Source of the DNA: Eledone cirrhosa
Lineage: Eukaryota
Assembly (NCBI GenBank): GCA_964016885.1
Contig: OZ024760.1
Location: 17,236,001-17,300,000, forward strand
Direction of reading: 5' to 3'
Length of the DNA stretch: 64,000 nucleotides
Below are positions 35,008 through 63,419 of this stretch, in pieces. Positions within the stretch are counted from its first letter, which is position 1. Every line of letters starts with the position of its first letter. The notes beneath the pieces are model-generated. The model was not told the origin of the DNA and made no database searches. It saw only the letters and a list, made by a program, of their open reading frames with translations. A program made the translations under genes and the position numbers.

Positions 35008-35032
35008 ATGGATATTCCCAACCCGCCTGAAG
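35008..35032 (+). CDS. CHERP: CHERP coding exon 1 (MDIPNPPE + G, phase-1 donor)
   Basis: aacATG GAT ATT CCC AAC CCG CCT GAA G|gtgag. Splices in frame to 41876 to give MDIPNPPEDLEQKNIIDKLANFVARNGPEFE, matching the CHERP N-terminus as I recall it (MEMPLPPDDQELRNVIDKLAQFVARNGPEFE). Confidence 0.9.
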
Positions 35033-35401
35033 GTGAGAAAAAGCTTTTAAATTGATATTAACTTTTATTATTTCAGTTTAATCGAATAAGAGAAATATAA
35101 GGCATCTCCCAGGCTCTGTTTACTACAATCGAGAGAGGTAGACCGACTGTATGTATCCTGTTTGATGCAGTAATTATCACACATGTGTTGTATATCGTCC
35201 GGTGCCAAACATGTTTTTATGGTGAAATCTACAACTTAACTTGAAAGATTTTTAAACAATCTATTTCTAACTCTTAGATTTTCTTCCACTAATACTCAAC
35301 AAAAACAACATCTGTGACATTTTATATACACATATTACATCATGCGTTATATATATAGATAGATATATACTGAGAGAGAGAGAGAGGTATGTATAGAAAG
35401 T

Positions 35402-40752: not shown

Positions 40753-40838
<86 letters not shown>

Positions 40839-40945
40839 AAGTAATTCCATCGGAATTTTTCCTTTCCTTCTCCCTTTTCCAGCCTCACTTTCATATAGAT
40901 TGCATTTTTGTTTTTAAAATCCATATTCAATAAACAAACCAGGAT

Positions 40946-41006
40946 TTTTCATTCTGAGGATTGAAAGCAAAACCTTTTGCTTTTAAGAAACCACTGGTAA
41001 ATGGAA
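40946..41006 (+). ncRNA. Complete type I hammerhead motif, family D, sense in CHERP intron 1
   Basis: UUUCAUU CUGAGGA UUGAAAGCAAAA cc UUUUGCUUUUAA GAAA CCA c UGG UA / AAUGGAA. A 5'-truncated relative on the - strand at ~57575-57654 has stem-preserving changes. Confidence 0.78.
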
Positions 41007-41060
41007 TAATTGCCTTATGTTGTTTATTACATAATAATAATATATATATATATATATATA

Positions 41061-41410
41061 TTCATTAGGTAAGCAAAACAAGGCCACAAATTTCATAAGG
41101 AAGACATTATTAAAAGATTGTCAGCATATTTTAGTTTGATGTAAGGAATGTAGAGAATAATAATAATAATATTAATAATAATAATGTCCGTTTCCAATTG
41201 TTTCGCTACTCCATATAATATTTCTGGATCAGATGACTATATATCATTATTGATCTGGTTCATATTATATGGAGTAGCGAAACAATTGTAAACGGACATT
41301 ATTATTATTATTATTCTTTATATTCCTTACATCAAACTAAAATATGCTGACAATCTTTTAATAATGTCTTCCTTATGAAATTTGTGGCCTTGTTTTGCTT
41401 AACTAATGAA
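41061..41410. mobile_element. ~150-bp-arm fold-back with hammerhead 3' half (family F)
   Basis: Arms 41061-41221 / 41262-41410; GC GAAA CAAUUG UA with palindromic ACAAUUGU at ~41277-41291; preceded by (TA)n. Confidence 0.65.
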
Positions 41411-41576
41411 TATTTCCAGCTCTGCGCGCCTAACTTCTGCATGAACCCAGCCACCTAGCTGCTTTCTACTGCATATTGCACATTGAGTACATGCCTTTAT
41501 GCTTTCGCTTCTAACTAATTCACCAATCTCTCCTCTCCTATTTCCATCTCTCTCTTTAAGATTGGTTAGTCTTGAA

Positions 41577-41607
<31 letters not shown>

Positions 41608-41875
41608 CAGTCCACGCTGTAATATGGTCGTGTAGGTAACACAGTAAAAAGCTCCCAGTCCACACTGTAAATGTGGTTGGTGTTAGGCAGGGCATCCAGC
41701 TGTAGAAAACCTGCCAGATAGTCCTATATGAGCGAGACACGGTCACCCGACCACCCTGCCTCAAATTGGGACAACTGTCGACTAACCCATGTTAGCGTGG
41801 AAGATAGACGTTAAACGATGATGATGATATAATTTATTTATCTATTTATTTTCTCTTTGTTTTTCGGGTGTTTAG

Positions 41876-42046
41876 ATCTTGAACAGAAGAATATCATTGA
41901 TAAACTGGCCAATTTTGTTGCTCGAAATGGCCCTGAATTTGAACAGATGACCAAACAGAAACAGAAGGACAATGCAAAGTTCAGTTTTCTGTTCGGAGGA
42001 GAATATTACCAATACTATCAGTTCAAAGTTAATGCTGAGCAAACAG
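41876..42046 (+). CDS. CHERP: CHERP coding exon 2, SURP/SWAP domain
   Basis: Polypyrimidine tract + tttag| acceptor; encodes (D)LEQKNIIDKLANFVARNGPEFEQMTKQKQKDNAKFSFLFGGEYYQYYQFKVNAEQT; ends ACA G|gtgag (171 nt, phase 1/1). The rest of ORF 41857-42486 is intronic repeat. Confidence 0.93.
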
Positions 42047-42305
42047 GTGAGAAAGTTGTTATTTTTCTACCTCTTTCTCTGAGCAATCAGGTGAGAGAGT
42101 TGTTATGTCTGTATCTACCTCTTTCTCTGAGCAATCAGGTGAGACAGTTGTTATGTCTGTATCTACCTCTTTCTCTGAGCAATCAGGTGAGACAGTTGTT
42201 ATGTCTGTATCTACCTCTTTCTCTGAGCAATCAGGTGAGAGAGTTGTTATGTCTGTATCTACCTCTTTCTCTGAGCAATCAGGTGAGACAGTTGTTATGT
42301 CTGTA
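42035..42305 (+). repeat. 48-bp tandem repeat made from the CHERP exon-2/intron-2 junction (5 extra CAG|GTGAG donors)
   Basis: Unit CTGAGCAATCAGGTGAGASAGTTGTTATGTCTGTATCTACCTCTTTCT; GT at 42047 (true), 42091, 42139, 42187, 42235, 42283. Confidence 0.92.
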
Positions 42306-42606
42306 TGTGTGTGTGTATATGTACCTGTGTATGTGTGTGTATGTACCTGTGTATGTGTGTGTGTGTGTGTGTGTATGTATCTGTATGTGTGTGGTGGGAT
42401 TATCTCTCACTCATCTTTATCACTTGGGTTATCTTATTGGGTTATATATTATATTTTATTGTGGGGTGAGAGGGAAGTTGAAGTAGCCTAGGGTTGTTGT
42501 TGTTGTTAGTGGTGTTGGTTGTAGGGATGGGTGTGTGTGTGGGGGGGGAGTTATATCATTTATGGTTTCTTTCTTTTTCCTTCTTCCTCCTCTTTATCAC
42601 ACCCAT

Positions 42607-44015: not shown

Positions 44016-45635
44016 CATCATCACCATCATTTAACATCTATCTTCCACGCTAGCATGGGTTAGACGTGAATTGTCCCATTTGAGGTACGATTGGTTGGGT
44101 GACTGTGTCTCGCTCATATAGGACTATCTGCCAGGTTTTCTACGGCTGGATGCCCTTCCTAACACCAACCACATTTACAGTGTGGACTGGGAGCCTTTTT
44201 ACCGTGTTACCTACACGGCCACATTACAGCGTGGACTGTGTTTGTTTATATATATATATATAGTAATAATGAGATAAATGTGAAGATTAAAATTCAAAGA
44301 GGGCTCGATAAGGATAATATATATATATATACATACATATATACATATACACACATATATATATATACATACATGCACATACACATACATGATGATGGTT
44401 GCAACTTGTTTTGGCCTGGATGTTGTGGTACCAGCATAAATTTACATTGAAAGGGGTGGTGTGGATGAGGTGGGGGCGTAGTGGGACATTATATATGTAT
44501 ATAATGTAAATGCAAAAAGGTTAAGCTACAGCGAGTTCAATGCTTTTTCTTGGACAGGACACCAGTCCATTATAAAGGGCAGTCCATCACAGGGCTGTCA
44601 AACACCCAACAAACTTCCTGTGTGATGCAACCTCACAGGAGGCTGGCTAAACATGTACAAGAGTGAGCTGTAATAAAAACAATAGTTATTGTAGTAGTTG
44701 TTGTTGTAGCCAGATTGTTTATCCTGCTTAGAGCTGTCAGCATTAAGACAGTTTTAACTAACTTTCCTGTCTTCAGAAGACACACACCTGTTCTCCCTCA
44801 GCCCCTCTCTTCCCCACCACCATAACTTAGAGGTGGTAGTGGTGGTGATATATATATATAACAATATTAATGAAGTTCGCTAGTATAAATACAGCATCCT
44901 TCGGCCAGTGTCTAACTCACTCAACAAATCTAGTAAATTGCAGTTATGCAGCTGCAATCACCTGTTCAGAGTGCACACAATTAGTTTTAGTTTAGAGCAT
45001 TGGCTGCGTTTTTAATTAGAGAATATATATAAGAAAAGGAATAAAAGCGACAGGAGGCTGGAAAGTTGAAATTCCTTCATGGGCTTCCTCTACTGTGTCT
45101 TCCTTCTACTGGGATTTCTTATATATATATATATATATATATATACAAATATTAATAAAGTGGGGAGACCCAAGATGACTTGGGATGAGGTGATAAAAGC
45201 CGACCTTACCCAACTACACCTCTCAAAGTCAATGACACACGACCGTGACTTCTGGCGTCACGCAGTAATACAGGGTACCCGACCTCCCATGGGTACATGC
45301 TGAAGCATATAAACAATATGCCCCCCCCCCTCCACCGCAAGGTGGCCGTGGACGTGCCACGGCAAAAAAGCACCCAGCCCACACTGTAAAGTGGACGTGT
45401 AGGCGCCACGAAAAAGCACCCAGCACTCACTGTAAATGAGGTTGGTGTTAGGAAGGGCATCCAGCTGTAGAAATCAAGCCAGATCAGTTCCTGTATGAGC
45501 AAGGCATGGTCAGCCGACCAGACACTGCCCACAACAGGACAACCCGTCTAACCCATGCTAGCGTGGAAGAACGGACGTAAAACGGTGATGATGATGATGA
45601 TGATGAATAAAATAGATGTTCTTTTGATCAATTAC

Positions 45636-45688
45636 ATTTTATTATACATATTTCGGATGTACAACAGTACGTCCTCATCAGACAAAAT
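45636..45688 (-). ncRNA. Type I hammerhead motif, family C (intact arm of ~134-bp fold-back)
   Basis: AUUUUGU CUGAUGA GGAcGUAC uguu GUACaUCC GAAA UAUGUA UA / AUAAAAU. Confidence 0.8.
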
Positions 45689-45796
45689 ATAATGATACAT
45701 GACATACCCTGAGATGTTAAATGGTTAAGATTTAATCAATCTACCTTGATTAAATCTTAACCATTTAACATCTCAGGGTATGTCATGTATCATTAT

Positions 45797-45849
45797 ATTT
45801 TGTCTGATGAGGACGTACTGTTGTACATCCAAAATATGTATAATAAAAT
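45797..45849 (+). ncRNA. Family C hammerhead, GAAA>AAAA core mutation
   Basis: Inverted copy of 45636-45688 with G>A at 45831. Confidence 0.7.
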
Positions 45850-45979
45850 GTAATTGATCAAAAGAACATCTATTTTATTAATATTTGTATTTTAATATAT
45901 ATATATATATACACACTCTATTTTGAATATTGAGTTCTTCCTCCTTTGTGGACTATGAAGGTTACTAGAACAGAACACA

Positions 45980-51000: not shown

Positions 51001-51342
51001 AGGCACATGGCTTAGTGGTTAGAGCATTGGCCTTGCAATCGAAAGGTTGTGAGTTCAATTCTCAGACTGGGTGATGTGTTGTTTCCTTGAGCAAGACACT
51101 TTATTTCACATTGCTCCAGTTTACTCAGCTGTAGAAATGAGATGATAGGGACTGGGGTCCCTATCATTCCACTGCAGAGTGGTCGTGGAGGTGCCATGGC
51201 AAAAAAGCACCCAGCACTCACTGTAAATGAGGTTGGTGTTAGGAAGGGCATCCAGCTGTAGAAATCAAGCCAGAATCAGTTCCCGTCCCACCCTTGCAAG
51301 CAGGGAAAAGCGGACGTAAAATGATGATGATGATGATGATGA
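50999..51342 (+). mobile_element. Second tRNA-derived SINE family with RTE-type (GAT)n tail; head copy at 2603-2768, tail copies at 41605-41828, 44015-44238(-), 45330-45605, 46303-46525(-), 54990-55163, 58036-58207(-)
   Basis: TGGCTTAGTGGTTAG A-box, GAGTTCAATTC B-box, CCTTGAGCAAGACACTTTATTTCAC core, GGTGTTAGGAAGGGCATCCAGCTGTAGAAA...GGACGTAAAA(TGA)n tail. Confidence 0.8.
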
Positions 51343-57458: not shown

Positions 57459-57503
<45 letters not shown>

Positions 57504-57880
57504 GCAGTAATTCCGTCGGAAAAGTCCAGGAAAAAAGAGTGCTCTATGTAGGTTACGGAGCTTAATAATAAGAGTTATGTAATAAACAACATAAGATAAT
57601 TATTTCATTTACCAGTGGTTTCTTGAAAGCAAAAGAAATTTGCTTTCAGTCCCGTATATATATATATATATATATAACGAAAGAAATGTGGTAAGGAACC
57701 AGGTGGACCATAACACACCAAAGTACTCAATACTTAGGGTAGTAGAGTGGGTAATAAGAATGAGTAGGACCCCGACGGCTGAGCTCAACCCGTTTCGACG
57801 GCTAATTCTGGACTACTAATTCTAGTCCAGAATTAGCCGTCGAAACGGCTTGAGCTCAGCCATCGGGGGTCCTACTCGTT

Positions 57881-62493: not shown

Positions 62494-62953
62494 TATATGT
62501 ATATATATATACATGTATATATATATATACACATATATATATATATACACATGTATATATATATATACACATATATATATATATACACATGTATATATAT
62601 ATATATGCATGTATGTATACATACATACAAATATATATATATATATGTATGTATGTATACATACATACAAATATATATATTTATATATCATGCTGTCCTT
62701 CATTTTCCTGCCATATTGTTGCTCCTTTAAAGCTGTCACCTTATTAACTGTTGGTTTTATCTTTCTGTTAAAGGTTTTCTGCAAAGTCCTCACATTGTTC
62801 CTGAGTCTGGTCCACATTTCCATTATCAGGGTCCTCCTAGCTGCCTCCTCAGTGGTAATGTGTGTTTTGTCTCATTCCATGGCCTCTCATGCTATATATA
62901 TATGTATATATATATAATATATAAGATCAAAAGATGGTTAAAAGAGTTCCAAA

Positions 62954-63024
62954 TATTTTATTATGCGCATTTCAAAAACAAATATCATCATGGGATGATA
63001 TCTGCGTTCTCATCAGATAAAATA
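62954..63024 (-). ncRNA. Type I hammerhead motif, family C variant (intact arm)
   Basis: UAUUUUAU CUGAUGA long stem II (CAGAUAUCAUC ccau GAUGAUAUUUG) GAAA UGCGCA UA / AUAAAAUA; perfect palindrome AUGCGCAU in stem III. Confidence 0.82.
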
Positions 63025-63078
63025 GTTTTAAAACTTCACTGCTCACAAGTGTTTTTTAAACTTCATATCATGTCTCCG

Positions 63079-63150
63079 TATTTTATCTGATGAGAACACA
63101 GATATCATCCCATGATGATATTTGTTTTTGAAATGCGCATAAATAAAATA
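63079..63150 (+). ncRNA. Family C variant hammerhead, right arm, extra A at the cleavage-site/stem I junction
   Basis: Inverted copy of 62954-63024; arms of ~100 bp (62923-63024 / 63079-63183). Confidence 0.75.
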
Positions 63151-63419
63151 CTTGGAACTCTTTTAACCATCTTTTGATCTTATTTTATTTATACTCCAGT
63201 CCTACAACTGTTGAGTGCTACTTATCTGATATTTGCATTGCTTTATTGTGCTACATTAAAACTCACCTCCTACATGTATATATATATATCTATATCTCGT
63301 GTGTATATATATATATATATACACATTATATATACATATATGTACATAATACATACATATAAATAAATGTTGCTCCCATCCTCTGCCAACAGCCACCCCT
63401 AACAAACATCACCTCTAAC

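Follow-up and report, generated by a model that had tools for sequence, protein, structure and literature searches.

The stretch of DNA analysed here, referred to as the window, comprises 64,000 nucleotides of the Eledone cirrhosa genome and contains the first exons of CHERP, which we take to be a splicing-related gene. Coding exon 1 (35008-35032, + strand) encodes the same 8 residues as cuttlefish CHERP and is followed by a GT donor at 35033; exon 2 (41876-42046, + strand) carries the Surp module and is 98% identical to Argonauta CHERP; later exons were mapped to about 65 kb beyond the window end. Sequence inspection and a motif scan revealed a complete type I hammerhead on the + strand at 40947-41006, and because exons 1 and 2 bracket the motif it is placed in CHERP intron 1 (6,843 nt), on the sense strand. 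The earlier note on this DNA had reported a complete core on the transcribed strand of this intron, about 870 nt upstream of exon 2; sequence, motif scan and exon mapping bear out both statements, the motif ending 870 nt before exon 2 and the predicted cut site lying 876 nt from the 3' splice site.

One contig of run X4 (the kind of run is not on record) matches exon 2 without differences (41874-42048) and leaves its flanks uncovered, as would spliced mRNA. A 48-nt tandem repeat (42035-42306) starts at the 3' end of exon 2 and contains a donor-like sequence several times over; by their sequence these are possible alternative donors. In intron 2, a tRNA-like Rfam match (51006-51069; 29.9 bits, just over threshold) is probably the head of a tRNA-derived SINE.

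Anatomy and covariation of the hammerhead

Stem I pairs 40947-40953 with 41000-41006 and has the 7 bp previously described, one of them G-U. It is followed on the + strand by the core CUGAGGA (40954-40960), stem II (40961-40986), GAAA (40987-40990), the palindromic stem III region ACCACUGGU (40990-40998) and GUA, with cleavage predicted after A40999. Core, stem II, GAAA and GUA were identified both in the sequence and in the motif scan, stem II being seen by covariation as well, and all the hallmarks of a type I hammerhead are present: CUGANGA, GAAA, NUH, three helices and an open stem I. Two details of the fold needed correction. The 12 bp formerly assigned to stem II would require a 2-nt loop; 10-11 bp is realistic, and the outermost pair of the 12-bp version (U-A) is kept in 11 of 20 family variants. 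The 1-nt loop III proposed before cannot close in a monomer, where stem III instead forms 3 bp with a 3-nt loop; in the predicted homodimer it forms 8 bp with a central C-C mismatch.

The motif scan found no hammerhead in 60 first-order Markov shuffles of the window. The Rfam hammerhead model was not reached in the window at its gathering threshold, the single listed match being the tRNA-like one, and the folding energy of the hammerhead is by itself not unusual (z -1.37). Since Rfam is silent and the folding energy unremarkable, the case rests on motif and covariation; the hammerhead in CHERP intron 1 is real.

For covariation, 20 variants were aligned: the window copy, 18 of 30 loci found with a looser pattern, and one neighbour, duplicates and overlaps being excluded. 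Across these variants 91% of cells pair, and two-sided changes are present in 7 of 21 pairs, against 0-3 with the partners slid; shuffles scored as high in 6 of 500 cases for the 7 two-sided pairs and in 0 of 500 for 18 cells. The aligned rows are related and were found via the core pattern, so that invariance of the core is partly forced, as is that of the three stem III monomer pairs (20 of 20 variants); the stem II changes are not. Stem II thus covaries across subfamilies, which argues that the fold matters to the element, within which it has likely been selected.

The minimal hammerheads of metazoan Penelope-like elements (PLEs) are, like ours, of type I with a long helix II and a short palindromic helix III for dimers (PMC4209133; PMC6765202), and are mostly dispersed single copies from truncated PLEs (PMC4209133). 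The closing of helix II differs. In the PLE minimal consensus a conserved G10.1-C11.1 pair lies next to the core (PMC4209133), whereas in our family a G-C or G-U pair is third from the core (G-U in the window copy and its subfamily), with N-U before it and A-A after it. The first position of stem II is variable, pairing in 11 of 20 variants, and the combination of an extra nucleotide after A9 with a G10.1-C11.1 closing pair was not found in the 20. Helix II is also longer, at 10-11 bp against 7-8 (PMC4209133).

The Penelope-like family and its insertions

The 59-nt hammerhead motif has 1,197 exact copies in the genome (592 + 605), the reversed pattern, used as control, having no genome match; a looser family pattern gave 9,650 matches, some of them counted twice, and 0 for its control. 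When 40880-41030 was compared with its own genome 954 candidates were obtained, and the 40 that were scored are all 99-100% identical. A full element is present in L031, where a hammerhead precedes a 710-aa ORF and recurs after a long 3' UTR of simple repeats; the window stub (40855-41042) is identical to both of its pLTR copies at 187 of 188 nt, and the spacing of the two hammerheads gives a unit of about 4.1 kb. A Pfam search of the 710-aa ORF (P0001) named no family; of 7,997 candidates scored against it, 1,339 are homologues at E<=1e-40. In an alignment of P0001 with ten chosen homologues, all 11 rows carry DKT in place of DKG, a CxCX5C linker and an RT motif of YRDD type; in P0001 itself the interval from the GIY-like to the YIG-like motif is free of Cys, and CCHH is lacking. 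At least 20 full-length, stop-free copies of the ORF, at >=96% identity, are found among the 64 genome matches listed, which suggests a young family that is probably still mobile.

These ORF motifs, the 1,339 homologues and the anatomy of the copies form the basis on which we assign the stub to a Penelope-like element, apparently of the Hydra clade, for which hammerheads and insertion into (TA)n are also given as features (Craig et al. 2021, bioRxiv 10.1101/2021.04.23.441226 = PMC8557442). The resemblance extends to a single ORF with RT then GIY-YIG-like domain, as in the clade's C-terminal EN+ PLEs, with DKT and the CxCX5C linker; to the absence of a Cys pair inside the GIY-YIG core, the hammerhead in the pLTR and the (TA)n targets; and to 5' truncation, an inverted arm and a tail at one end only (PMC8557442). 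Our element departs from the clade in size, about 4.1 kb rather than 'generally <3 kb', because of its long simple-repeat 3' UTR, and in its tail of 64 nt rather than 30-40 nt (PMC8557442). A non-LTR retrozyme was considered as the source and rejected: tandem non-coding units are absent, and the locus holds one stub derived from an element that codes for protein.

The window copy is a 5'-truncated, tail-less Hydra-clade 3' end of 188 nt (40855-41042, + strand), adjoined by an inverted arm of 20 nt (40836-40855, - strand) that ends at the second, tailed 3' end of the element and matches the tail end at 100%. On the left it is flanked by a (TC)n(TA)n target tract (40757-40835) and on the right by a (TA)n tract (41043-41061). 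The only other family copy found within the mapped CHERP gene lies antisense in intron 2 (57503-57652, - strand); it is an older stub, about 90% identical and with a truncated core. Copies of the family in general terminate at either of two points, 64 nt from each other, with (TA)n following in both cases. Among the first 30 copies, each of the 7 head-to-head pairs is tailed at one end only, and a single tail-to-tail pair at both; with its tail-less 188-nt arm and inverted 20-nt tailed arm, the window copy fits the one-tail pattern. Of the 1,197 copies, the first 100 share one contig; 46 of these are without an exact copy within 15 kb, 50 make up 25 head-to-head pairs, and for 26 a partner lies within 500 nt.

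In the Poseidon element PAc of Anolis (Frangieh et al. 2024, PMC11167929), two 3' end points likewise define the tail, the targets are AT-rich, both strands are used and the hammerhead lies near the ends; PAc belongs to a different clade and has hammerhead and end points within the ORF, whereas ours are upstream of the ORF start. For the anole element two internal reverse-transcription starts explain the inverted, one-tailed arrangement (PMC11167929). By extension from Frangieh et al. (2024), the RT/endonuclease of our element would have nicked both strands of the AT-rich target, reverse transcription would have been primed from two internal sites separated by 64 nt, and each cDNA would have stopped early, one at 188 nt and the other at 20 nt.

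This arrangement bears on the claim that the copy is unpaired unlike most other complete ones. The claim holds against other families, since 3 of the 4 other complete hammerhead loci of the window sit in fold-backs, but not within its own: an inverted arm overlapping the hammerhead is present within 1.5 kb in 11 of 30 sampled copies and lacking in 19, of which 6 have a partner at 1.6-4.9 kb. Likewise, the statement that no inverted arm is adjacent is true for the hammerhead itself, but the 20-nt inverted tail arm adjoins the stub. The hammerheads of the other families, which have a short palindromic stem III, are located at 9363-9602, 45603-45882 and 62909-63193, with a further core at 3109 (- strand); the fold-backs at 45603-45882 and 62909-63193 lie in CHERP introns 2 and 3, and GAAA is broken in the sense-arm copy at 45804.

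The full element contains a second hammerhead in its 3' UTR (L031:8538-8597; about 82% identical), which is without counterpart in the window stub. Such second hammerheads are typically found 1.1-1.5 kb upstream of the terminal one and have G at position 17, which is not cleavable under the NUH rule; among the first 100 family matches, which comprise several subfamilies, 11 have G17 and the other 89 A. The second hammerhead ends like a tail-less 3' end, so that the UTR may have captured an older end. Most of its rows keep the core, and 7 of 55 matched rows, overlapping loci being recounted, have a broken one; a role for it as a built-in dimer partner found no support, given these broken cores and the predicted A-B dimer, which is not the active fold. 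Two GCUC...GAGC hairpins (L031:5767-5787 and L031:5834-5908; z -2.1 and -1.2) immediately follow the two 3' end points seen in inserted copies, one hairpin per point.

Predicted folding and cleavage of CHERP pre-mRNA

Nearest-neighbour folding, which leaves out tertiary contacts, Mg2+, co-transcriptional order and protein help, gave the active monomer fold a share of the ensemble of 1.2e-2 when the 60-mer was folded alone, of 1.3e-3 within 151 nt and of about 1e-6 in contexts from 188 to 720 nt. The predicted rarity in long contexts is due to a pyrimidine tract of the element (40871-40882, + strand), whose predicted partner is 40994-41005, so that the cut site is covered; in the partition function the G41003-C40873 pair has P 0.66-0.85 at 37 C. 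The hammerhead had been described as unmasked; on these predictions it would be masked by the stub's own tract. The same pairing over the cut site is predicted in the young subfamily and in several older copies, and is possibly a built-in off state.

For two 60-mers the predicted minimum-energy structure is the active dimer, at -31.4 kcal/mol against -23.4 for two monomers, and the predicted fold has the palindromic helix III that allows dimers of PLE minimal hammerheads. The predicted folds thus support the earlier proposal of a weak monomer in need of a dimer partner. No second sense copy of the family was found within the mapped CHERP gene, and the antisense stub at 57503-57652 could at most mask the hammerhead.

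The time available for cleavage can be estimated from mammalian transcription, which proceeds at 3.5-4.1 kb/min (PMC10919898): at this rate the 876 nt correspond to about 15 s until the 3' splice site is made, and intron removal can last far longer. Published work on PLE hammerheads describes a single Schistosoma PLE minimal hammerhead with no cleavage in vitro and dimers that cleaved weakly (PMC4209133). The anole PLE hammerhead depended on protein, could be dispensed with for insertion in vitro, and showed no RNA-seq read ends at its cut site (PMC11167929). Splicing has been described as unaffected by slow intronic ribozymes (Fong 2009, as cited in PMC10919898).

A probable passenger in the intron and its alternatives

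Our interpretation, which we hold with high confidence, is that a young Hydra-clade Penelope-like element left a stub in CHERP intron 1, within a (TA)n tract, and that the hammerhead is here likely a passenger without activity. For RNA of the element itself, we infer from the structure and from Cervera and de la Pena (2014) that the hammerhead would act in dimeric form, joined by the palindrome of stem III, or assisted by the element protein. Within CHERP pre-mRNA it would misfold with its own upstream tract and then likely leave uncut with the intron, given the lack of an exact partner in cis, the predicted misfold and the interval of about 15 s to the 3' splice site. Its presence and intactness reflect youth and not a role in CHERP, since it is the end stub of a retroelement with 1,197 exact copies. 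The copy is ordinary for its family, and the hammerhead is not a gene-specific device. The earlier note was right in its complete sense core and weak monomer, and we agree that the motif is probably tolerated; it missed that the motif belongs to a high-copy retroelement stub, and the unpaired state that it stressed is not distinctive.

The intact core and selection at the level of the family mean that a partner RNA or the element protein could activate the hammerhead in trans. Element transcripts or RT protein would then refold or pair with the copy and cut part of the CHERP pre-mRNA, measurably lowering CHERP mRNA, an outcome that we consider improbable. In its favour, the core is intact and the homodimer predicted through the palindromic stem III is favourable; the genome holds some 1,200 identical copies that could act as partners and no fewer than 20 intact ORFs that could provide protein; and the anole PLE hammerhead was protein-assisted (PMC11167929). 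Against this, the local misfold is predicted to cost about 8-9 kcal/mol, which equals the dimer's gain, published PLE dimers are slow to cleave (PMC4209133), and with a short-lived intron a bimolecular encounter in time is unlikely. Selection of the motif as an intronic regulator tuning CHERP splicing, after the manner of CPEB3, is a good deal less credible still. It is the intact core on the sense strand, in the first intron of a splicing-related gene, that invites the idea. The Cpeb3 ribozyme offers a precedent as a self-cleaving motif on the sense strand of an intron (PMC10919898, PMC10274809), but it is a conserved HDV-like monomer with measured fast cleavage and 9.9 kb to the next exon (PMC10919898, PMC10274809), whereas the CHERP-intron motif is multi-copy, young, predicted to be of dimer type and 0.9 kb from the exon; the likeness to co-opted intronic ribozymes is one of position only. 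For Cpeb3 a half-life of 2-3 min is needed over 9,931 nt (PMC10919898), against 876 nt here. Nothing marks the CHERP copy as adapted, since 187 of its 188 nt agree with the family end sequence and the state of the remaining one is also present in older subfamilies. Further, the motif is a current repeat with 1,197 exact copies, not one specific to the locus, and among so many some sense intronic copies are expected by chance. In frog, 42-44% of retrozyme copies overlap introns, with net depletion after size correction (10.64898/2026.07.22.740005).

That the motif arose by chance, or that a repeat was misplaced in the assembly, we rate no higher than such co-option. Microsatellites lie on both flanks, and among the contigs listed over 40836-42060, which are swamped by other copies of the repeats, none bridges the stub and a unique flank. 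A chance motif is ruled out by the 60 motif-free shuffles and the 0 matches of the reversed pattern; misplacement is opposed by a normal two-armed insertion anatomy with (TA)n flanks and by the base at 40917, which is absent from 84 other locus hits.

The passenger reading leaves the locus itself of little consequence, dispersed PLE hammerhead stubs being already known from many animals. The family is of more use: about 1,200 identical recent hammerheads provide a clean test, by counts of intronic sense and antisense copies, of whether PLE ribozymes harm host pre-mRNAs, and the 20 or more intact ORFs are material for Hydra-clade biochemistry. Trans cleavage of CHERP pre-mRNA, if true, would offer a retroelement a direct route to regulate or damage host genes. 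In its widest form, to which we assign a slightly lower probability again than to trans cutting at CHERP, young Hydra-clade stubs in host introns would be cut in trans through dimer partners or protein supplied by the active element, and the ~1,200 identical hammerheads, the CHERP copy included, would make up a network switched by the retroelement and clipping host pre-mRNAs upon element expression; such a network should show as depletion of sense-strand intronic copies.

Literature searches on octopus hammerheads and on Hydra-clade Penelope-like hammerheads found no published study of this family's ribozyme; Penelope-like elements as such are known from Octopus vulgaris, with recent activity there (PMC13282606). 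Other Penelope-like ORFs stand beside family copies at L041:3876-6136 and L039:9142-9999, the L041 pieces being without a Pfam family. Directly after the window stub, in the same (TA)n tract, lies a 356-nt palindrome (41058-41413) with arms 86% alike, which has a GAAAC-palindrome-GUA half resembling a decayed hammerhead of another family. In run X5, from another organism, a 95-nt piece (record 19) has one difference from the stub at 40887-40981, and a near-identical subfamily therefore exists in a relative.
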